In this document: positions 10,218-52,425 of the stretch, in pieces
How positions within the stretch are numbered: position 1 is the stretch's first letter
How the letters are laid out: each line of letters starts with the position of its first letter
Source of the DNA: an uncultured Bacilli bacterium
Lineage (GTDB): Bacteria; Bacillota_I; Bacilli_A; RF39; UBA660
NCBI GenBank assembly: GCA_944331915.1
Contig: CALVIR010000001.1
Location: 10,851-74,850 of the forward strand
Reading direction: 5' to 3'
DNA: 64,000 nucleotides
Notes under the pieces: model-generated
What the model saw: only the letters and a program-made list of their open reading frames with translations
What the model was told of the DNA's origin: nothing
Database searches by the model: none
Made by a program: the position numbers and the translations under genes

Positions 10218-11951
10218 TTATTTAGATTTAACAATATAACTAGCCAATAGTAAAAGTGGTAAACATGCAAAAGCACTATAAATATATCTAAATTCGGCAA
10301 AGACAGGTGTTGCAACCATCATCGTTAACCAAATACCAATAACTGGAACAAAGACATAAAGTGATCTATAATTTTTACGTTTAATCGCTACCATAAAGGC
10401 AATAAAGATTAACCAAATGCCTAAACCAATACTCCAAGAAAAGTTAAGAATAGGAATTTCTTTAGTTGTTAAATGATTAGTTACCTCTTTAACTTTAGCA
10501 GGTAATAAACTACTATCTATCAAACCAAGATCATTTTTATCTATTTTAGTTACTACTGTCCAATAATCAATAGTTGGATACCAATAACCTAAAGTAGATA
10601 TTAAATAAGCTTCACTAGCTACACTAAAATGTTTAAAACATAAACTTGCCCATAATTTTAAATATGTAAGTTTATTCTCTTCAAAAACCTCTTTATTATA
10701 TTCATCATTAAATTTAATACTATCAACAATCTCTGGATTATAAGAATTCCTCAAAGTCTCTAAAGGTATTAATTCATTAATAAGCTCTTCCTCTTCTTCT
10801 GTAAACTCTACTCCTTTATAAGCCATTCTACCTAACTGCTGTAAAGGAATCGCTAAATACTCCGTAGAACTAGAACTTTTAACATTAAAATAACTGTAAA
10901 TTGGTCCTTTAACACCAAAATAAACTACAAAAACAATTAAAAGCATCAAACCAATCGTCTTTATCTGCTTTCTAAAGACTATTAAAGTAATAATTGCCAA
11001 AATAATATACATATAAATAGCATTATTTCTAAAGAAGACGGTTAAAATAGAAATTATAATAAAAGTATAAGAATTTCTAAACGTAATCGTTTTCTTTTCT
11101 AAAAGTTTAACTAATTCCATCGTTAATAATAAAACTAAACCACAAAATATAACATCTTTCCAATTAGAGATACTATAAAAAGCATGAACTGGTAAAATGG
11201 CAAAATATAAAAGAACAAAAAGTAAAATATATTTATTTACTCCTCTTTTATAAAGGAATGATATAAACTTACCAAAGATTAAAGACATAATAATCATCTG
11301 GGTAAGAGTAATTAATGAACAAGCGATAACAGTATTATCAAATAAAGCCATTCCTAATTTATAAGGAATTGTCATAAATAACAAATGAATAACTGTATGA
11401 TGATCACTAATTGTACTAAAATTACTAGCAATCATATTTAACTCAGAAATAGAATCATTTGTAAATAATCCTGGATAATAAATTAAAAAGTATGGTAAGA
11501 AACATAAGAAGATAATTAAACTTGCTCCTAAGAAGACATTAATTTTTCTTTTAAAAGTAAACTTTTTAATAACTTTCGCTTCACATACTACTGGTAAAAC
11601 ATTAATTAGTAACAGGTAAAAAATTGCGGTATAGCCACTAATATAAATAAGGGACTTTAATTTAAATAATTCTCTAAAGACACTATAAGTATCATTATAT
11701 CTAAAGCTATAACAAATCATACCTAATAGATATATAAGAGCAAGAAAAACAGAAAGTAAAAAGGTAAAACGGCCATACTTTTTATTAAATAAATCACTTT
11801 TATAAGCTGCAATAACAAAGATAACAAACACTACTAATAGTAAGACATTAAAGTTAGCGATATAATCTTGATAGATTAAAGTTACATAACTTAATACTCC
11901 CATTAATATAGATATGATGATTTTTTTATTATTTTTTATTAGTTCTTTCAT
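10218..11951 (-). CDS. Polytopic membrane protein, putative GT-C-like glycosyltransferase or polymerase
   Basis: 577 aa, many TMs, and a soluble loop of about 110 aa near the C-terminus. The family was not recognised with certainty. Confidence 0.35.
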   Translation of the reverse strand: MKELIKNNKKIIISILMGVLSYVTLIYQDYIANFNVLLLVVFVIFVIAAYKSDLFNKKYGRFTFLLSVFLALIYLLGMICYSFRYNDTYSVFRELFKLKSLIYISGYTAIFYLLLINVLPVVCEAKVIKKFTFKRKINVFLGASLIIFLCFLPYFLIYYPGLFTNDSISELNMIASNFSTISDHHTVIHLLFMTIPYKLGMALFDNTVIACSLITLTQMIIMSLIFGKFISFLYKRGVNKYILLFVLLYFAILPVHAFYSISNWKDVIFCGLVLLLTMELVKLLEKKTITFRNSYTFIIISILTVFFRNNAIYMYIILAIITLIVFRKQIKTIGLMLLIVFVVYFGVKGPIYSYFNVKSSSSTEYLAIPLQQLGRMAYKGVEFTEEEEELINELIPLETLRNSYNPEIVDSIKFNDEYNKEVFEENKLTYLKLWASLCFKHFSVASEAYLISTLGYWYPTIDYWTVVTKIDKNDLGLIDSSLLPAKVKEVTNHLTTKEIPILNFSWSIGLGIWLIFIAFMVAIKRKNYRSLYVFVPVIGIWLTMMVATPVFAEFRYIYSAFACLPLLLLASYIVKSK

Positions 11952-13110
11952 CTTTATTCATTCCCAAAACTTTTCTAATATTTTCAACATATCTATATCT
12001 CTTAGAATTATATATAGCCGTTAAGTTATCTTTTAATTCTTTCGCTTCATGTTTATATTTATCACAAAGTATATTTGTCTTTTCATATTCCTCTTTATAG
12101 TAATTACGTTGATATTGTAATTCTTCTACTGTAAAGTACAAACTTTCCGCTTGTCTTTTTAAGTCTTTAACTTTATCTTCTTTATATTTCTCAAACTCTA
12201 TATCTTTAACTTTTAAAGATTCAGCATTATTAACAAAGTCCTGACATTTTTTAATTAAGTCTTCTCGATATTTTAAGTAATGAGTAGGATTACTTAATGG
12301 TTTATCTATATATTCTAGTAATTTAGAGTCTTTCAAGCATTCACTTTTCGTAATAGAGTTACACATTTTAGAATACAAATTCATTCTATTAACAACATCT
12401 TGATTATTATCATCATAGATTAAAAGAACAGGCTCTTCTATAGCAAGACAAGGTAGGCATGAATGTAATCTGCTTGTAATAACACATCTAGCTTGTTGAT
12501 ATTTTCTAAGAAGTTTATGTACATTTTCCAGTCTCTCTTCTAAACTAAGCTTAGAGTTTTTCTTGCCATCAAGATCATGACAAATCTCTACTACTTTTAA
12601 ATTAGTATGTTCTTTTATTCTCTTTACAATTTTCTCATCCAAATCAACGACACAAATATAATTTTGTTTTTTAACATTCTCTTCTTTAGGAATTGTTAAA
12701 GTCATACAACCAGAAAAATAATTTTTAACCTCATCTTCATCTAAATATTTTTTTACAAGATCATCTCTCAATCCAATTGGTTCATATTTTTTTAACCAAG
12801 AAGTTGCTAAACCTTTTAGATAAGTTGGTCCATTAATCTCCGTATTCCGAAAATGCATAGAAACAGGTAAAGGATTAATATAAGGTGAAGGTGGAAAACA
12901 AGATCTATTACTTAACCACCAACCATTCATAATACAGTTAACAGTTTCTTTATCATCTGAAACAAAAGAATCTACCTCTTCTCTATCTATAATGTAATCA
13001 ATATGAGGTAAAAAACGACTAGCCGCATAACTTTGGACATCATCACCAATATTATCTGTATTTTTAAAAACAATCAAGCCAAATTTAGGTTCATTCTTCT
13101 TCATCTTCAT
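11929..13110 (-). CDS. Polysaccharide pyruvyl transferase family protein with a C-terminal coiled coil of about 100 aa
   Basis: NTDNIGDDVQ near the N-terminus and ITSRLHSCLPCLAIEEPVLLI resemble PS_pyruv_trans motifs. The C-terminus is rich in heptad-like K/E repeats. Confidence 0.6.
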   Translation of the reverse strand: MKMKKNEPKFGLIVFKNTDNIGDDVQSYAASRFLPHIDYIIDREEVDSFVSDDKETVNCIMNGWWLSNRSCFPPSPYINPLPVSMHFRNTEINGPTYLKGLATSWLKKYEPIGLRDDLVKKYLDEDEVKNYFSGCMTLTIPKEENVKKQNYICVVDLDEKIVKRIKEHTNLKVVEICHDLDGKKNSKLSLEERLENVHKLLRKYQQARCVITSRLHSCLPCLAIEEPVLLIYDDNNQDVVNRMNLYSKMCNSITKSECLKDSKLLEYIDKPLSNPTHYLKYREDLIKKCQDFVNNAESLKVKDIEFEKYKEDKVKDLKRQAESLYFTVEELQYQRNYYKEEYEKTNILCDKYKHEAKELKDNLTAIYNSKRYRYVENIRKVLGMNKDERTNKK

Positions 13111-43767: not shown

Positions 43768-46700
43768 TTATTCATTATTATATCGTAACAATTCTCTAAT
43801 ATCTTCAACTGATAAATTTTGAAAACTTTTATATTCATCCCCATCTTTTTCAATTAATTTATCACTTAGTATTTTCTTTTTATTTTGTAAATCAAGAATC
43901 TTTTCTTCAATTGTTCCTTTAGTAATTAATTTAATAACCTCAACTGTATTCTTTTGACCAATTCGATGTGCTCTATCAGTCGCTTGATTTTCCGCTTGTG
44001 GATTCCACCATAAATCTAAGTGAATAACAATATCAGCACTAGTAAGATTAAGACCAGTTCCTCCACTCTTTAACATAATTAAGAATATATTCGTATCATC
44101 ATTATTAAAGTTATCAACTAACTCTTGTCTTTTCTTACTACTAACCGAACCATCTATAACATAACTAGTAATTCCTTCTTTAGTTAAATTATCTCTAACG
44201 ATATTTAAAGCGGTTTTAAAACTTGTAAATAATAATATTTTATGACCATTACCTACCGCTTCTTTAACTATTTTTACTAAGTTCTCAATCTTAGATGATG
44301 GTTTATCATAGTTTTCAAAGATAATTTTTGGATCAATACATACTTGTCTAAGTCTAGTTAACAAAGTAAGTATTAACATTTTATTTTTAGTAAAGCCATC
44401 ACTTACTAATTCTTCCATTTTATCTTTAGCATCTTTAACACAAGAAGCATATATTTTCTTTTCATCATCACTTAAATCGATATAAATATTATTTTCTAAC
44501 TTATCTGGTAAATCTTTTAAGACCTCCCCTTTCTTTCTTCTTAGAATAAAAGGCTTAACTTGTGTTCTTAATTTATCAAGAGTAAGATTTGTATTATCAT
44601 CAAAGTCATTATTAATTTTATATTTCTCACTAAATTTACTTTTACTAGCTAAAAATCCTGGCATAATATAATCAAAGATACTCCAAAGCTCTAAAACTGA
44701 GTTTTCTACTGGCGTTCCTGTTAAAGCAAGTTTAACCTCACTTTTTATACTCTTAACCGCTTTTGTTAACATAGCCGTTGGATTTTTAATATTTTGTGCT
44801 TCATCAATAACCATTACTTTAAAGTTCATCTCTTGATAAATTTCAAGATCTTCTCTTAATAGTCCATAGCTAGTAATATAAACATTGCCATCATACTCAC
44901 TTAATTTTTTATGTCGCTCTTTTTTCACTCCAACAAAAATATTTCTTTTAATATCATCACTAAACTTTCTAAACTCATTATCCCAGTTATAAACTAAGGC
45001 AGTAGGTGTTACTATTAATATTTTCGCCTTACTATCTTCTTCTAAAACTCTTCTAATAAATATAATAGTCTGTAAGCTCTTACCAAGTCCCATCTCATCA
45101 GCAAGAATTCCTCCTAAGCCACATTTATAAAGATTATAAAGCCATTTAACACCTTCTTGTTGATATGGTCTAAGAAGCTCTTTTTCTTCTTTCGTAAATT
45201 TAACCGCTATATTTTGATATTCTTTAAAGTTTTTAATAAATTGATCAAACAATGAGTTAGTTTTAATAAAGCTATTTTTACTTTTTAAGCTATCAAGATA
45301 TATCGCTCTAAATTTAGGTATTTCCCCTTTCTCTTCTTCTAAATCTAAATCTTCTTTTAACTCTTCTAATTCTCTAATAGAAGGATCTAATAAGTCTAAG
45401 ATATCTCCACTTTTTAGTTTATAATAGTGTTTCTTACTTTTTAAGCTTAAGAATATATCATCCAACTCACTAGGGTTAACATTATCTAATTTAAATTCAT
45501 AATTTAAGATATTATCTTTGCCAATACTAAAACTTGTTGTTCCTGATACTTTCTTTACAAGCATGGTATTTTTAATTTTTTCACTTGTAAAAACATCATA
45601 ATCTTCAGCAAGCTTATCTAGCCCTTCTTCAAAGAATATTCCTATCTCATCAATATCGTATAATCTTAACGCTTCATCAAATCCATACCTTTGTAGTTCT
45701 TTAACTATTTTCTCCTCAAACTCTTGATCTCTAATAACATTTTTATTTTTCTTATCAAAATAATTTATCTCTAAATTATCATATATGAAAAGCAACTTAC
45801 ATTCAATATAGAGTTCTGTGATATCAAAGTATAATTTTACTTTAGGTGTTTTTACAATCACTAAGTCATCAACTGATGAATCTAATGTCACATTATCTTT
45901 AATAGATGGTATTAAATATTTTTTCAAATCTTTAAAAGTATCTTTATCAAAAGTAAGACTAGTAACCTCTTCTTCTAGTAAATTACGAACAATAATTCTT
46001 TCTGTTTCTGTAAGTTTATAAATACCGTTCTTATCGATTAAATAGCTATAATCATCAGTAAGTTCTTTAAGATTTTTCAAATCATAGTCAATATCTAAGA
46101 TATGATTATCATCTTTATCTTTAGTTAATTTAAAGGTAAATGGTAGATGTTCAATCAAAGGTAATTCTCTATTTATCCCCACTGCTTCAACATAAATAGA
46201 ATCAACAAGGTAAAATAGTTCATCTAAAAGTCGTTTATTGAGATCTAAATAATTATCATAACGATAACTCTTAGCATAGGCATGATCAATAAAGGTTATC
46301 ATCTTTTTACTGTCTTCATCAAAATAGTAGTTTTTGTTATTATAGATAAAGTCTTTACCAAATTTAAGTTCTCCTCCATAGTAGTATTTATCAATGAAGG
46401 AACTAACTTTATTACCCAAAGCATATAATTTACTTGCCCCTATTTTAAACCTAAGCGAATAAAAGTATTTGTATTCATTATTATAATAGCCATAGTAGTT
46501 TCTTTGGCTTTCTAACTTTAAAAACGGAATAATCTTTGCTTCTTGTTTAACAACTTTACCATTATTACTAACTTTCTTAACCTCTTTTATTAAATTAGAA
46601 ATAACTAATTTAGACATATCTTGACTACTAAGTTTAAAGTAATCATTTTTATATTTAACTAATACGGCTGCTAAATGTTTACATGAACCAGTTAGAATAA

Positions 46701-46938
46701 ACTGTGGACAATTACAAGAATACGCCTCTAATTCATTATCTTTATTAATATCAAGACTAACAATATATGATCTATCCATATGTTCAGAGTAAACTACATA
46801 ACTTTGCTCTCTTAATTTACCACTAGGACTTTCTCCAACATATCGCACTTTTCGAGAGTCATAGTTCATTCCTTTTTCTAAGTCACTATCTCTTACAATA
46901 TCTAATATTTCATCTGTCATAATACAAACCACTTCCAA
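43768..46938 (-). CDS. SNF2-family helicase/ATPase with an N-terminal SWIM zinc finger (YwqA-like)
   Basis: SWIM motif CNCPQF..GSCKHLAAV. SNF2 motifs LADEMGLGKS, DEAQNIKN, LTGTPVEN. Helicase-C motifs GGTGLNLT.AD, QA.DRAHRIGQ. TTG start preceded by an AGGAG RBS. Confidence 0.9.
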   Translation of the reverse strand: MEVVCIMTDEILDIVRDSDLEKGMNYDSRKVRYVGESPSGKLREQSYVVYSEHMDRSYIVSLDINKDNELEAYSCNCPQFILTGSCKHLAAVLVKYKNDYFKLSSQDMSKLVISNLIKEVKKVSNNGKVVKQEAKIIPFLKLESQRNYYGYYNNEYKYFYSLRFKIGASKLYALGNKVSSFIDKYYYGGELKFGKDFIYNNKNYYFDEDSKKMITFIDHAYAKSYRYDNYLDLNKRLLDELFYLVDSIYVEAVGINRELPLIEHLPFTFKLTKDKDDNHILDIDYDLKNLKELTDDYSYLIDKNGIYKLTETERIIVRNLLEEEVTSLTFDKDTFKDLKKYLIPSIKDNVTLDSSVDDLVIVKTPKVKLYFDITELYIECKLLFIYDNLEINYFDKKNKNVIRDQEFEEKIVKELQRYGFDEALRLYDIDEIGIFFEEGLDKLAEDYDVFTSEKIKNTMLVKKVSGTTSFSIGKDNILNYEFKLDNVNPSELDDIFLSLKSKKHYYKLKSGDILDLLDPSIRELEELKEDLDLEEEKGEIPKFRAIYLDSLKSKNSFIKTNSLFDQFIKNFKEYQNIAVKFTKEEKELLRPYQQEGVKWLYNLYKCGLGGILADEMGLGKSLQTIIFIRRVLEEDSKAKILIVTPTALVYNWDNEFRKFSDDIKRNIFVGVKKERHKKLSEYDGNVYITSYGLLREDLEIYQEMNFKVMVIDEAQNIKNPTAMLTKAVKSIKSEVKLALTGTPVENSVLELWSIFDYIMPGFLASKSKFSEKYKINNDFDDNTNLTLDKLRTQVKPFILRRKKGEVLKDLPDKLENNIYIDLSDDEKKIYASCVKDAKDKMEELVSDGFTKNKMLILTLLTRLRQVCIDPKIIFENYDKPSSKIENLVKIVKEAVGNGHKILLFTSFKTALNIVRDNLTKEGITSYVIDGSVSSKKRQELVDNFNNDDTNIFLIMLKSGGTGLNLTSADIVIHLDLWWNPQAENQATDRAHRIGQKNTVEVIKLITKGTIEEKILDLQNKKKILSDKLIEKDGDEYKSFQNLSVEDIRELLRYNNE

Positions 46939-46988: not shown

Positions 46989-47381
46989 TTAAAGCTTAAT
47001 ATTTAACATAGTTTTATAAGTTTTTTTTAACCTTTCTTTTTTATCATGATTCATATCAATAAAGTTAATATGTAATTGATATCCACTATCGAAACTAAAT
47101 AGTAATTCTACTTTACCTGGTTTAAAGTTAATCGCTCCAGATGAAATAGAAACATAAGGAAAAATATGAATTTTCTTATAATAAACAGCTAGAGTATCAC
47201 GATCAAACAAAATCATTTTTTTGTCAGTAAAAACAGCATAGTCCTTACTATTTTTATAACTACCTAAAATAGTTTCTTGACTACTAACATACTCTTTAGC
47301 ATAATCAGGTAACTTATCTACTGCAATCTCTTCCTTAAAATCAAAATACTTAGATAACTCTTTAAACTTAATATACGACAT
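46989..47381 (-). CDS. Bacterial PH-domain (YokE-like) protein
   Basis: E.ILGSYK...DYAVFTDKKMILFD......KKIHIFPY..I pattern of bPH domains. The ATG at 47381 follows a GGTGAGG RBS. Confidence 0.55.
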   Translation of the reverse strand: MSYIKFKELSKYFDFKEEIAVDKLPDYAKEYVSSQETILGSYKNSKDYAVFTDKKMILFDRDTLAVYYKKIHIFPYVSISSGAINFKPGKVELLFSFDSGYQLHINFIDMNHDKKERLKKTYKTMLNIKL

Positions 47382-47435
47382 AAACCTCACCTACTATCTT
47401 TATTTAAAAGATATCATCAGTAATAATAATAGTCA

Positions 47436-47709
47436 AGTATCTTGTCATAATTTGTTAATCCTTTTTTAAAATGTCACCATATCATTAGTTAAAATGTCAC
47501 CACTAAGTTTTATAATTTCTTTATAAGCAAATCATTGATAATAGGCAGTAATAACTCGTCATACTTGCTGTAATATCTTATTTTTAAGATATTACGCACT
47601 TCAAAAGAGTTTTTACTGGGTCCCTGTTGTCAATGAGGAATTATAAAGAAATTATACTATAAAATCGGTGACATTTTAACTAATGTTTAACAGTATCTTG
47701 TCATAATTT
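47436..47709. repeat. Nested direct/inverted repeat element in an ORF-free gap
   Basis: 18-nt direct repeat AGTATCTTGTCATAATTT (47436-47453, 47692-47709). 19-bp perfect inverted repeat CATTAGTTAAAATGTCACC (47483-47501 / 47667-47685). 16-bp perfect inverted repeat TATAATTTCTTTATAA (47511-47526 / 47641-47656). Central 11-bp-stem hairpin at 47570-47595. Confidence 0.85.
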
Positions 47710-48175
47710 TACAGAATTTGTGTAACTATTCAGACTATTAATTTAATTGCATAATCTTTATTTTAAAACTTTCCTCTTTTCAAATTTAAGTCTAGCAGAC
47801 TATTCTTCTAATATTAATATACTTTTTATATCTAGTATAAGCAAAATTATAGTCACCTTTCTTGTCTTGGTACATACGTTTGCAACATTATCATAAATAT
47901 AATCGTATATTTCTTCATCTTAATGATTTCTTTTCAATATAACTTTTATATCATATTTCTATTTTTTCTTTTAACATCATTAAAATTCTCTTTTTGTTTA
48001 AAAATTGTTTTTTAGTACAATATCTAACACAACCAAAAGTTTTATGAATTAATCATTTTGATTGTCTGTTGGATATAGTCTAGACTTATAGATACCTCCC
48101 TGATGTAGTCAGTTTAGTATTCAGAATAATTGTTTAATAATAACTTTTTTGATTTTTTAAACGCACTTTCCTTAT

Positions 48176-48205
48176 AAATAAAAAAGAAGCATAAAATTAT
48201 GCTTC
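48176..48205 (-). terminator. Intrinsic terminator of the large surface-protein gene
   Basis: Minus-strand GAAGCAU-AAUUUU-AUGCUUC followed by U6. Confidence 0.8.
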
Positions 48206-48222
48206 AATCAATTATTTTATTA

Positions 48223-51200
48223 TTATTTAGCTACATTAAAAGTATAAGTAACACTATTACCTAAATTATCTGTAACTACAACAGAATTTTCTCCATTTTG
48301 GAATGTATAAGCATGACCATCATTAATATCTACATAAGTACCTGTATGTGGTAACTGTGTTCCATTAATAACAACACTTGCTATTCCATTTTCATCATAT
48401 AATTTTAAGTTTAATGTTTGATAAACACCATCGTTTACAACAGTACCAGCATTAAAACTATATGTAGGAACAGTTTTATCAACATTGAATGTATAAGTTG
48501 CAGTATTTCCTAAATTATCTGTAACTACAACAGTATTTAAACCATTTTGAAAAGTATAAGCATGTCCATCATTAATATCTACATAAGTACCTGTATGTGA
48601 CAATTGCGTTCCATTAATAACTACACTTGCTATTCCGTTTTCATCGTGTAATTTCAAATTTAAAGTTCCATAAACGCCATTGCTTTCAGTAGTACCACCA
48701 TTGAAACTATAAGTAGGAGCTGCTTTATCAACATTGAATGTATAAGTTGCAGTATTTCCTAAATTATCTGTAACTACAACAGTATTTAAACCATTTCGGA
48801 ATGTATAAGCATGTCCATCATTAATATCTACATAATAACCTGTATGTGGTAATTGTGTTCCATTAATAACTACACTTGCTATTCCATTTTCGTCATGTAA
48901 TTTTAAATTTAGAGTTCCATATACCCCATTATGCTCAACTGTTCCATCATTAAATGTATAAGTTGGAGCCTTTTTATCAACAACGAAAGTATATGTTGCT
49001 GTATTTCCTAAATTATCTGTAACAACCACTGTATTTGTTCCATTTTGGAATGTATAAGCATCTCCATCATTAATATCTACGTAAGTACCTGTATGTGGTA
49101 ATTTGGTTCCATTAATTACTATACTTGCTATTCCATTTTCATCATGTAACTTTAAATTTAATGTTTTATATACATCATTATAGTCAACTACATCACCATT
49201 AAATGTATAAGTTGGAGCCTTTTTATCAACAACGAAAGTATATGTTGCTGTGTTTCCAGCGTTATCTGTAACAACTACTGTATTTGTTCCATTTTGGAAT
49301 GTATAAGCATCTCCATCATTAATATCTACGTAAGTACCTGTATGTGGTAATTGGGTTCCATTAATTACTACACTTGCTATTCTATTTTCATCATGTAATT
49401 TTAAATTTAATATTCCATATACCCCATTGTATTCAATAGTTCCATCGTTGAATGTATAAGTTGGCACTTGAGTGTCTACTTTAATATTGATAGTAGTTTC
49501 ACGGCCCATCTCATCAACAGCAGTAATTTTGTATTTACCAGTTTCTTCAATTACATAACCATTTTCTACCTCATAGCTTTCATCTTCATGATAAACTGTT
49601 ATTGTTTTTAAAGAAGTATCATCAACTTGAATTACAGCAGGATTGTAAACTCCTCCTTCTTCTAATCCAACAAATACAGGATTACTATTATCAAGTATTA
49701 CTTTATCAAATCTCTTCTCATACTCTTGTTTTTCACTATAAGTAATATCTGCATTAGTATAGGCTCTACCTTCATTATCTGCTAAATCTCTAATGCCATA
49801 TACACTGAATTGAATTTCTCCTTCACTCAATCCTAATTCTTCAGTAATAGCAACATCTAGATAGTAAGCATAACTATTGTTCTCTAAATCAGAACTTTCT
49901 TCTGTATAATATGTTTCAAATTCTTTATTACCTATTTTAACAATAGGATTAGTTGCTAATTTTTCATCAAAGTAAGTTAATACTCTTACTTTTTTACCAT
50001 AAGTAATATAATGAGCATCTTCATTTTCACTTATAAATCCAGTAATACCTAAAATTTTAATGCTAGGTACAGTTGTATCTAAATATACAACATGCTTATT
50101 AGTAGGTTTTTCAACATCATCTGTTGTATTTCCTGCTAAATCTTGAATGCTAGTTACTAACATTGTGATTTTTCCATCACTCATCTTAGTATCTTCATCA
50201 ATTGTATATCTGATTGAATATGTATATTCACCAGCATCATTAGGACCAGTTTCAACTACATCTTCAACTACATATTCATTACCATCATTTATTAATGTAA
50301 ATGTAGGTAATTCTTTTAATTTTTCACTAAATCTAACATAAGAGTAGATTGTATCTCCTACTTTAGCATAAAATTCTTTTTGCTCGTTAATATCACCATC
50401 TACTAAAATATTAGCAGCTTTAACTACAGCTTTTGTATTATCTATAGTTACACTTGGATATGTTTCTTCATTAATATCATCTTGAGTTAGATTAACTCCA
50501 ACATTACCAATAGCATCAGCATATCCATAAACCTCAAATGATAATATACCATCACTTAAATTCATATCTTCTGTTAGTTTAATGTCTGCATAATATGCAT
50601 ATTTTGGACTATTTTCACGATATGTAGCAATAAATTCAGTACCGCCTAATCTAACTGTAGGTTCTGTGCCTAATTCTTCATCAAAGTAAAGTCTTACACG
50701 AACAGTATCACCATATTTAGCATATAGTCTTCCTGTTTCATCAGTAAATTGATCAAGATTAACAATACCTAGCGATCTAATTACTGGTGCAGTACCATCA
50801 TAAGTAACTTGTCCATAATTTTTGGTATTCGTAACATCACTATTATCTAAGGTAATAGTATTACCAGCTTTATCATATATATTTGTGATAGTAAATGGAA
50901 TCTCTTTTCCATCTTCTAAATCAGCAACTGTATTATCAATAGTAAGATCAGCTATACATACATACTTACCATAATCTGTTTCGTTACATTTTCTAAATGT
51001 TACACTTTGTGAATTACCTATAGTTAATACAGGTAGTTCTGTTAATTCTTCATCAAAATTAACCTCAACTCTTAATGTTTGACCATTTCTAATAGTCTTA
51101 CGATTATTTTCATCACTAACATTAAGAATATAAACCCATTTTTGTTCTTCAACATGTTTATCAATTACAAATGTTATTGTCTTTGATTTATTTCCAGCTT

Positions 51201-52323
51201 TATCAGATACATAAACAGTATAAGTACCTTCTTCAGTTATTGGATCACCTGGTTTATATGGTTTAACTGTTTCTTCACCTCTTTTAAGATGTACAGTACC
51301 AGGATTAGTATCATCAATAGTAACTGCAACAGTAGTATTATAGTATTTACCATCTTCTACACCACCAACTACTGGATTAGTTCTATCGATTGTAAATGTT
51401 AATGTTGCTTCATTAAAAGCTTCATCAACAACTGTTACAACATAAGTACCTTCTTCAGTAAATGAATCAGTAAAATCTATTGGATTACCATTTAATGTTA
51501 CTGTTGTTGTAACATCAGTAGTATCACTTATAGTTAAAGTAACACTATCTTCATCAGTGAAACTATTATCAACAATACCACTAATAACCGGACGAGCGTT
51601 ATCGTTTAGTATCTTATTAACAGTTTCAAGACGATTTGCTAAATTATCTTTAGCAGAACCATCGATTAAGTTGTTAACTAACTCTTCTATTTTTTCTTCA
51701 TCACGGTAATCTATTGAATCTAGAATACCATCTCTATTAGTAGAATTAGCAACCTTTTCTTCTAATCTTTCAATTAAAGCTGTAACATCAATAATATCTT
51801 GTACTGCTTCAAGACGATTATTTAATTCATCTTTTTGTGATTGATTAGTTACTTTGCCCACAAGGTCAGCTGCATAGTCAACATCTCCTTGTGTAAGAGA
51901 AGACTCAGCATTTTCAACGGCTTTTAAAGCTTCAGCATAATAATCATCAGTAATAACTGGTACTGTAGGTGTAGTTCCAGTATCACTACCATTACCAGAT
52001 CCAGTACCATTGTTATTTGTATTATTACCAGTTCCAATAATGCCATCACCACTAGGACCAGTTGTATAACCAGTCTCACCATTATAAGTAGTGATATCTT
52101 GTTCATCAACTGCTGTTAATGTATTACCATCTTCTTCATCTGATGATTCATCATCTGAAGATTCAACGTCATCACTTTCTTGATCAGAGCCTTGTCCTTC
52201 TCTTTCTTCAATATCTCCTTCCTCAAAATTTTCTTGATTATCAGGATTTGCGAATACAAAAGATCCTAAACCAATAATCAAGAATAAAACTATGGCAATA
52301 AGTCCTATTTTTTTCTTATCCAT
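48223..52323 (-). CDS. Large secreted repeat-rich surface protein (adhesin-like, multiple Ig-like modules; no LPXTG, SLH or CWB anchor seen)
   Basis: The ATG at 52323 follows an AAGGAGAGG RBS. Signal peptide MDKKKIGLIAIVLFLIIGLGSFVFA-NP. Then an acidic S/D/E-rich and G/N/T-rich linker, several modules of about 100 aa, and five C-terminal 83-aa repeats. Confidence 0.8.
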   Translation of the reverse strand: MDKKKIGLIAIVLFLIIGLGSFVFANPDNQENFEEGDIEEREGQGSDQESDDVESSDDESSDEEDGNTLTAVDEQDITTYNGETGYTTGPSGDGIIGTGNNTNNNGTGSGNGSDTGTTPTVPVITDDYYAEALKAVENAESSLTQGDVDYAADLVGKVTNQSQKDELNNRLEAVQDIIDVTALIERLEEKVANSTNRDGILDSIDYRDEEKIEELVNNLIDGSAKDNLANRLETVNKILNDNARPVISGIVDNSFTDEDSVTLTISDTTDVTTTVTLNGNPIDFTDSFTEEGTYVVTVVDEAFNEATLTFTIDRTNPVVGGVEDGKYYNTTVAVTIDDTNPGTVHLKRGEETVKPYKPGDPITEEGTYTVYVSDKAGNKSKTITFVIDKHVEEQKWVYILNVSDENNRKTIRNGQTLRVEVNFDEELTELPVLTIGNSQSVTFRKCNETDYGKYVCIADLTIDNTVADLEDGKEIPFTITNIYDKAGNTITLDNSDVTNTKNYGQVTYDGTAPVIRSLGIVNLDQFTDETGRLYAKYGDTVRVRLYFDEELGTEPTVRLGGTEFIATYRENSPKYAYYADIKLTEDMNLSDGILSFEVYGYADAIGNVGVNLTQDDINEETYPSVTIDNTKAVVKAANILVDGDINEQKEFYAKVGDTIYSYVRFSEKLKELPTFTLINDGNEYVVEDVVETGPNDAGEYTYSIRYTIDEDTKMSDGKITMLVTSIQDLAGNTTDDVEKPTNKHVVYLDTTVPSIKILGITGFISENEDAHYITYGKKVRVLTYFDEKLATNPIVKIGNKEFETYYTEESSDLENNSYAYYLDVAITEELGLSEGEIQFSVYGIRDLADNEGRAYTNADITYSEKQEYEKRFDKVILDNSNPVFVGLEEGGVYNPAVIQVDDTSLKTITVYHEDESYEVENGYVIEETGKYKITAVDEMGRETTINIKVDTQVPTYTFNDGTIEYNGVYGILNLKLHDENRIASVVINGTQLPHTGTYVDINDGDAYTFQNGTNTVVVTDNAGNTATYTFVVDKKAPTYTFNGDVVDYNDVYKTLNLKLHDENGIASIVINGTKLPHTGTYVDINDGDAYTFQNGTNTVVVTDNLGNTATYTFVVDKKAPTYTFNDGTVEHNGVYGTLNLKLHDENGIASVVINGTQLPHTGYYVDINDGHAYTFRNGLNTVVVTDNLGNTATYTFNVDKAAPTYSFNGGTTESNGVYGTLNLKLHDENGIASVVINGTQLSHTGTYVDINDGHAYTFQNGLNTVVVTDNLGNTATYTFNVDKTVPTYSFNAGTVVNDGVYQTLNLKLYDENGIASVVINGTQLPHTGTYVDINDGHAYTFQNGENSVVVTDNLGNSVTYTFNVAK
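48235..49479 (-). repeat. Five tandem 249-bp (83-aa) coding repeats
   Basis: The unit VDK.APTY.FN.G......VY.TLNLKLHDENGIASVVINGT.LPHTGTYVDINDG.AYTF.NG.NTVVVTDNLGNTATYTF is repeated five times with few substitutions. Confidence 0.9.
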
Positions 52324-52425
52324 AAAATCCTCTCCTTGCAATTATATTCTATCATTTAATTAACAAAATGCAACTAAATTTTACATTTTTAGATAAAAAA
52401 AGTACCAAATTTTAACTTTTGGTAC

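Follow-up and report, generated by a model that had tools for sequence, protein, structure and literature searches.

A repeat element upstream of the bPH/SNF2 operon

The window analysed here is a 64-kb stretch (64,000 nucleotides) of DNA from an uncultured Bacilli bacterium. Between the stop codon of a 1372-aa surface-protein gene (48223) and the start of a bPH-domain gene, it contains a gap free of open reading frames (ORFs). This is the largest ORF-free gap of the window, as an earlier reading of the sequence (the first-pass annotation) had stated. The gap sits between an intrinsic terminator (48186-48205) and the 5' end of the bPH/SNF2 operon, and both flanking genes are on the minus strand, a point that had been missed. 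Inside the gap we identified a 240-bp miniature inverted-repeat transposable element (MITE). It lies 16 bp upstream of the -35 box of the predicted bPH/SNF2 promoter, with its left inverted repeat (IRL) adjoining and the promoter firing away from it. The features of the locus are as follows, in window coordinates (IRR, right inverted repeat; RBS, ribosome-binding site).

47453-47692, plus strand: MITE of 240 bp, from IRL to IRR, with TGT...ACA tips; precisely absent from seven related contigs (L001-L007)
47437-47452, no strand: left copy of the 16-bp target-site duplication, GTATCTTGTCATAATT; a single copy is present in the empty sites
47693-47708, no strand: right copy of the 16-bp target-site duplication, placed by the repeat match and the empty sites
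47453-47501, plus strand: IRL end, tip TGTTAA; outer site TTAAAATGTCACC at 47466-47478 and inner site at 47489-47501
47667-47692, minus strand: IRR end, tip TGTTAA; one putative binding site at 47667-47679
47489-47516, plus strand: left promoter arm, TTAAAA-16-TATAAT; its -35 is overlapped by the inner binding site
47651-47679, minus strand: right promoter arm, TTAAAA-17-TATAAT; reads through the MITE towards bPH
47511-47656, no strand: near-palindromic body, bounded by the 16-bp inverted repeat, with the hairpin 47570-47595 at its apex
47408-47436, minus strand: predicted native bPH/SNF2 promoter; -35 TTGACT (47436-47431), 17-bp spacer, TGn (47416-47414), -10 TATCTT (47413-47408)
46989-47381, minus strand: bPH-domain gene, 130 aa; ATG at 47381, RBS at 47392-47385, Pfam bPH_1
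43768-46938, minus strand: SNF2 helicase gene, with Pfam SNF2 domains
47709-48185, no strand: native intergenic spacer of about 476 bp, outside the MITE and common to all empty-site relatives
48186-48205, minus strand: intrinsic terminator of the surface-protein gene, predicted from sequence
48223-52341, minus strand: surface-protein gene, 1372 aa from a mechanical TTG start, taken from the ORF list

Downstream of the targeted promoter, bPH comes first and the SNF2 helicase gene second. The start of bPH is the ATG at 47381, behind the RBS AGGTGAGG, and not the GTG at 47390 of the mechanically called ORF.

The repeats reported in the first-pass annotation were recovered at their positions. They are an exact 18-nt direct repeat (47436-47453 and 47692-47709), a perfect 19-bp inverted repeat (47483-47501 / 47667-47685), a perfect 16-bp inverted repeat (47511-47526 / 47641-47656), an extra direct copy of TTAAAATGTCACC (47466-47478), a hairpin with an 11-bp stem (47570-47595), and TTAAAA-N16/17-TATAAT on both arms. 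The 18-mer has no further exact copy in the window, where shuffled sequences gave 0.46 matches at three or fewer mismatches, and the 13-mer TTAAAATGTCACC occurs only three times in the 64 kb, each time within the element. The 240-nt element folds as a single long hairpin of -51.6 kcal/mol (z = -11.1 compared to shuffles). This repeat pattern is not due to chance.

Two features of the element had been overlooked. An imperfect 26-nt inverted repeat (47453-47478 / 47667-47692, 85% complementary) lies outermost and abuts the direct repeats; these 26-nt repeats are the true terminal inverted repeats. The body is a near-palindrome, with 73% identity to its own reverse complement over positions 31-233 and the hairpin at the apex, and it is conserved in seven MITE copies. 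The direct repeat was seen by eye as 18 nt because it takes in the T and the A of the TGT/ACA tips, and the duplication itself is 16 bp. No ORF longer than 29 aa was found in the 240-bp element.

Empty sites, other copies and the parent insertion sequence

The exact 130-aa bPH product is encoded on 20 public contigs. All seven bPH contigs that reach far enough upstream (L001-L007, from metagenomes) have flanks essentially identical to those of the window and lack exactly 256 bp, which is the element plus one copy of the direct repeat. Because these seven relatives have a precise empty site, the window carries a strain-specific insertion. The MITE probably inserted recently in the lineage of the window, the direction of the change being read from the presence of the same element at unrelated sites.

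One genome per species was scanned with the pattern GTTAANNNTTNNTTAAAATGTCACC, which matches both ends of the element. The 97 stretches that matched came mostly from metagenome-assembled genomes (MAGs) of gut 'uncultured Bacilli', Mollicutes and Erysipelotrichaceae, and many of them were at contig ends, as expected of a multicopy repeat. Paired matches were either about 235-340 bp apart (MITEs) or about 1490-1520 bp apart (full-length insertion sequences, IS). MITE copies, 79-100% identical, were present at no fewer than 12 unrelated sites in other gut Bacilli and Mollicutes assemblies, with different flanks and different duplications, and the matches of other loci to the window end at 47453 and 47692 or only a few bases away. 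Perfect flanking repeats, read to GTTAA, are 17-19 nt long, and in all of them A is the first letter and T the last, which sets the tips as TGT...ACA and the duplications at 15-17 bp (16 bp in the window). A few family copies have imperfect flanking repeats or none. A blastn search of plasmid and phage collections with the 841-bp gap gave no match.

These results bear out one of the options considered in the first-pass annotation, a MITE, for which terminal repeats, a target duplication, an empty site and multicopy status were all found. The same annotation had offered many copies elsewhere as the observation that would turn the locus into a generic element of this kind, and such copies do exist, in related genomes.

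The full-length IS is about 1.49 kb long, and an example (L014, 6077-7569) encodes a 430-aa protein (L014:6184-7476). The IRL of the window is 92% identical to the first 50 bp of this IS; at the other end, the IRR is 100% identical to the last 31 bp and matches 38 of the last 40 positions. The MITE body showed no significant similarity to the interior of the parent IS. A body made of a deleted piece of the transposase gene was rejected, as no significant similarity extends beyond about 65 bp at the IRL and about 40 bp at the IRR. One MAG, E08__bin130, holds a full IS (L099) together with several MITE copies 99-100% identical to that of the window. The MITE is very probably an internally deleted, palindromised derivative of a ~1.49-kb IS of the IS1202 family with ISTde1-type features.

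The parent transposase matches the NCBIfam model ISNCY_2 (E = 1.6e-72, profile positions 17-359 of 368), and its closest annotated relatives carry the name 'IS1202-like element ISEsa1 family transposase' (tblastn, E = 3e-31). Two signatures of the IS1202 family are present in it, a Q at E+7 (VEKWNNTIQ) and, between the first and second catalytic D, a DD pair (10.1101/2022.12.17.520857, PMC10132070). Members of this family have TGT tips and an extra internal transposase-binding site near the ends, and the ISTde1 subgroup makes duplications of 15-17 bp (10.1101/2022.12.17.520857, PMC10132070). The TTAAAATGTCACC site is doubled at the IRL and single at the IRR, a two-site layout like that in PMC10132070. 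The D-to-E spacing of about 40 residues is compatible with the ISTde1 subgroup and not diagnostic of it. A PDB sequence search with the transposase gave no match, and no report of MITEs of the IS1202 family was found in the literature searched.

The family ends have some further properties. In many members the IRR tip reads TGTCAA, a TTGACA that faces outwards (L014 6077-7569; published IRL/IRR columns), and the same members have TGATAAT or TAAAAT at about 14-15 bp from the IRL tip. Should the two ends abut with 2-4 bp between them, the circle junction would give a strong TTGACA-~17-(G/T)ATAAT promoter, as in copy-out/paste-in elements.

Predicted promoters at the insertion sites

The right arm of the element had been proposed as a promoter for the bPH/SNF2 operon. 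This is probably not the case. TTGACT-17-TGaTATCTT, located beyond the element, is a better candidate; the empty sites have it unchanged, and for this reason we take it, and not the right arm of the MITE, as the native operon promoter. An assignment of this motif to the element itself was excluded, since the motif is found in the empty sites and is parted from the tip by the duplication. In the full IS of L014, the inner left site overlaps the -35 of a TAGAAA-17-TATAAT promoter directly upstream of the transposase RBS and ATG, and the left arm of the window aligns with this promoter. The left arm is a remnant of the predicted transposase promoter of the parent. The right arm is a mirror copy of the left arm, made by the palindromic body. 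The two arms would then represent an autoregulated transposase promoter of the parent and its mirror image.

The order at the window insertion is target duplication, TTGACT, 17-bp spacer, TGaTATCTT, RBS and ATG (47381), which fits exactly the rule seen at other insertions of the family. To define this rule, all ends were oriented outward and duplicates were removed, which left 47 independent IRL flanks and 60 IRR flanks. A flank was scored as carrying a promoter when it had TTGACA-N16-18-TATAAT with at least 9 of 12 matches, at least 4 in each hexamer, and the -35 starting 15-18 nt from the tip. A promoter firing away from the element was found in 35 of the 47 IRL flanks as compared to 5 of the 60 IRR flanks (Fisher p = 7e-13), and the same test at control offsets gave 0-3 of 47. 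The TG extension, which was not part of the score, is present in 21 of the 35 promoter-bearing IRL flanks. When only the -10 match was considered (at least 5/6), 38/47 IRL flanks had it versus 11/60 IRR flanks. In most flanks an ORF starts shortly downstream, and six more metagenome MITE sites conform to the rule.

Published insertions gave a similar picture. The flanks of 229 insertions are listed in Supplementary Table 1 of the Siguier preprint, and we transcribed the entries with long duplications. Among left flanks of the ISTde1 group, CAA (the TTG of the -35) stands directly before the duplication in 22 of 36, and 18 of 36 reach a promoter score of at least 9/12. For the IS1202 subgroup, which has duplications of 24-28 bp, the corresponding numbers are 12 and 11 of 15, and six of these 15 flanks have a perfect TTGACA-16-18-TATAAT. 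The positional association of these insertions with promoters, taken as a pattern, is almost certain.

Harmer and Hall found no conserved target for the long-duplication groups (PMC10132070), and the text of the preprint (10.1101/2022.12.17.520857) makes no mention of promoters as targets. Our full-text literature search returned no link between the IS1202 family and promoters; it covered subscription journals thinly, so an earlier description is possible. We place at about even the chance that the ISTde1 and IS1202 subgroups, which span many phyla, truly home to sigma-70/sigmaA promoters and that this behaviour has not yet been described.

Several points weigh against this account of the element and its target. 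All promoters in the analysis are consensus predictions, and the -10 of the window itself (TATCTT) matches at just four of six positions, though with a TG extension. About a quarter of the insertions have no recognisable promoter. In a few published cases (ISSmsp1, ISTna1, ISUba1) the arrangement is reversed, with the promoter on the IRR side. Three Vibrio ISVbsp4 insertions have no -35 beside the duplication and instead have in common a GGGGCA about 13-15 nt away, which suggests that the ISVbsp4 lineage has a different target. As to the origin of the element, the empty sites by themselves fit insertion or precise loss equally, no full-length IS is present in the 64-kb window, and the transposase scores 244.7 bits against a curated ISNCY_2 cut-off of 250. 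Finally, many of the loci come from MAGs, in which copy numbers per genome are lower bounds and binning may err.

Two observations on insertion geometry are added here. One copy (L031 76-345) is at an atypical target: on the IRR side, the outer border of the duplication has a TTGACA that faces the element, and the -35 on the IRL side is weak (TTGTTT). The family's three duplication classes (5-6, 15-17 and 27-28 bp) are spaced about 11 bp apart, close to one turn of the helix (10.1101/2022.12.17.520857); in both long-duplication classes the promoter-side joint is fixed at the -35 edge and the distal joint shifts.

A mechanism can be proposed from these data. The 430-aa DDE transposase of the parent would move the MITE in trans by binding the TTAAAATGTCACC sites, two at the IRL and one at the IRR. 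It would cut at the TGT/ACA tips and join the ends to the target at cuts staggered by 16 bp, which would account for the flanking 16-bp duplication. The promoter would set the position of the proximal joint, on the upstream border of a sigma-70/sigmaA -35 box. The 16 bp next to the -35 on that side are copied in the duplication, so that native sequence is retained between about -37 and -52 and the core promoter is left undamaged. In this scheme, targeting would most likely proceed by docking on promoter-bound RNA polymerase, in the way proposed for the sister ISAba32 group and XerC. The element may benefit from a landing site of this kind, where genes are spared and the transposase gene would diverge from the host promoter and so avoid read-through.

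We considered whether the promoter association could arise without guidance by RNA polymerase, the transposase reading TTGACA directly or the pattern reflecting selective survival of insertions. The TTGACA hexamer resembles the TGTCAA/TGTTAA tips of the family ends, TGTCAA being the IRR tip in many members, the -35 hexamer abuts the duplication, and purging of insertions in coding DNA would enrich intergenic sites. We regard this explanation as possible but tentative. Selection is unable to create a fixed distance of 15-17 bp together with a fixed orientation. Direct reading of the hexamer does not agree well with the stronger conservation of the -10 (38/47 with at least 5/6) relative to the -35 beside it (24/47 at the same level), or with the enrichment of the TG extension, which is expected of whole-promoter recognition; sites with a poor -35 still have a perfect -10 at the right distance, and the duplicated sequences beside the hexamer are unlike an IS end. 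Targeting of a 'pseudo-end', in which TGTCAA would be taken for an IS tip, was rejected since the adjacent duplicated DNA does not look like an IS end and a conserved -10 lies on the opposite side. At Xer sites, according to the authors who described the sister ISAba32 group, what is recognised is not the sequence alone. On the strength of the better conserved -10 and TG extension, the perfect -10 at poor -35 sites and the ISAba32 analogy, we favour targeting through promoter-bound RNA polymerase over targeting of bare DNA, while giving it only about an even chance of being right.

Other explanations concern the window element itself. Its perfect 19-bp inverted repeats flank about 165 bp carrying promoter-like hexamers, and inverted repeats of about 20 bp around a short promoter segment resemble the geometry of gut invertons. 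The first-pass annotation had raised such an inverton, and its text leaned towards this option. On this reading, the 19-bp repeats would be sites of a serine or tyrosine invertase and a flip of the ~165-bp segment would switch a promoter between bPH/SNF2 and the antisense direction. This is highly improbable. The repeats are predicted transposase-binding sites and stand at the same places in the full-length parent, and the element is absent as a unit from seven relatives, with one duplication copy left. In 14 of 14 near-full-length aligned copies (the seven in alignment A2 together with L105-L108, L110 and L111, all from assemblies), the core is oriented identically with respect to the asymmetric ends. 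Since promoter-like sites are present on both arms, an inversion of the near-palindrome would have little effect. No recombinase was found among the ten neighbouring proteins scanned, in agreement with the annotation, which had seen none nearby. The suggestion of an RNA locus fared no better: Rfam gave no match at gathering thresholds in the window and none at E up to 1 in 47300-48300, and the element is a MITE instead. The 18-nt repeat had also brought to mind the core of an att-like integration remnant, or the long Cas1-type duplication of a casposon-derived MITE; both were excluded because the parent is a DDE IS of a family that makes 15-17-bp duplications.

It is also conceivable that the MITE, whatever its origin, has been exapted, so that the bPH/SNF2 operon is now under its control. 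Read-through could be added from the minus-strand TTAAAA-17-TATAAT, the A-tract beside the IRL could have the role of a distal UP element, transcripts could be terminated or destabilised by the long hairpin, and an antisense RNA running towards the surface-protein gene could come from the plus-strand arm. There are two 10/12 promoter-like sites inside the element, all DNA that lay beyond about -52 of the operon promoter is replaced by the insertion, and a transcript would hold a very stable hairpin. We nevertheless find such a role unlikely. The insertion is absent from 7/7 related contigs and so is no conserved part of operon control; the right-arm -10 is not conserved in the L031, L027 and L076 copies and matches at 4/6 in L096; and promoter-like matches in this AT-rich region are no commoner than in shuffled sequence (10 found versus 9.7 expected). 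A recent MITE insertion at the edge of the operon promoter is the reading that we retain for the locus.

Neighbouring sequence and known systems

The native spacer to the right of the MITE holds only tiny ORFs, as had been described, the longest being at most 49 aa. It has no copies in any locus compared and thus is not another repeat. A 21-aa ORF (MKKYTIIFMIMLQTYVPRQER) is predicted at 47853-47918 on the minus strand. In L006 a deletion of 24 bp (48099-48122) takes part of the orphan GGGAGG, and single-base polymorphisms at 47720 and 47792 are the only other differences in the gap (alignment A1). Farther away, the length of the surface protein differs among near-identical strains (L001, L002, L004, L005, L006), with values of 1366, 1248 and 1200 aa and 1372 aa in the window, which suggests variation in repeat number. 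L002 has another insertion sequence at 11014-11996 (corresponding to about 42.1-42.5 kb of the window), among small ORFs downstream of a TetR gene, and it encodes a 252-aa DDE_Tnp_1/DDE_Tnp_4 transposase. L007 has a 78-aa ORF in place of the TetR gene of the other strains.

With this analysis, what had looked like a puzzling cluster of repeats becomes a recent, strain-specific MITE insertion, and a candidate promoter for bPH/SNF2 emerges as well. As a MITE the finding is ordinary, and its interest lies in the promoter-edge landing rule for a clade of the IS1202 family. The long duplications of the ISTde1 and IS1202 subgroups had been noted before with no target found, and their flanks show a fixed landing at the -35 edge. 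If true, bacterial insertion sequences would include a class that homes to promoters, a counterpart of Ty3 in prokaryotes, and we found no description of such a class. Its members would insert with the IRL bordering the -35 hexamer on the upstream side and would duplicate 16-17 or ~27 bp of UP-element DNA. Confirmation would explain how these elements spread without killing genes and would provide a bacterial case of a transposase that reads the transcription machinery. It would also mean that DNA upstream of about -52 (about -63 in the IS1202 subgroup) is displaced and upstream activator sites are cut off. Each insertion would mark a promoter, a free annotation in MAGs of uncultured organisms.

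Among known systems, Correia elements of Neisseria and RUP of Streptococcus pneumoniae are also short and non-coding, with terminal inverted repeats and a target duplication, and they are likewise multicopy, hairpin-forming, intergenic and able to carry promoter-like hexamers. Their duplications are 2-bp TA, and they are linked to other IS families; no fixed distance from promoters is known for them. Invertons of gut organisms likewise have inverted repeats of about 20 bp around a short promoter-bearing intergenic segment. Unlike invertons, the window element has a flanking target duplication, a precise empty site, a transposase-encoding parent and one orientation in all copies.

The closest likeness is to the ISTde1 subgroup (ISCpsp1 of Coprobacillus, ISHahy13, ISTde1), with which the element and its parent have in common the TGT...ACA tips, the 15-17-bp duplication and a ~1.5-kb parent with a 430-aa DDE transposase carrying Q at E+7. 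TGTCACC occupies positions 20-26 of the ends and recurs about 23 bp deeper inside, position-for-position as in ISCpsp1, whose matching IRL is TGTTAAGACCCAGCGATTTTGTCACC...AAAATGTCACC. Unlike members of the subgroup, the window has just a 240-bp non-autonomous derivative with a body unrelated to the parent interior. Within the same family, the ISAba32/ISAjo2 subgroup is likewise orientation-specific, with the IRL at a fixed short distance from a protein-binding site. It targets XerC/D (dif, pdif) sites with duplications of 5-6 bp (PMC10132070, 10.1101/2022.12.17.520857), and its authors proposed that the bound protein is what is recognised there. Here, in contrast, a promoter's -35 edge serves as the landmark, and the duplication measures 16 bp (about 27 bp for the IS1202 subgroup).

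A wider comparison is with the yeast retrotransposons Ty3 and Ty1, which integrate at or upstream of RNA polymerase III promoters by tethering of the integrase to TFIIIB or Pol III. These are eukaryotic retroelements, whereas the family of the window is a bacterial DDE element for which a tether is hypothetical. As in Ty3 and Ty1, insertion would be positioned by the site of transcription initiation, a safe landing place at which genes are spared.

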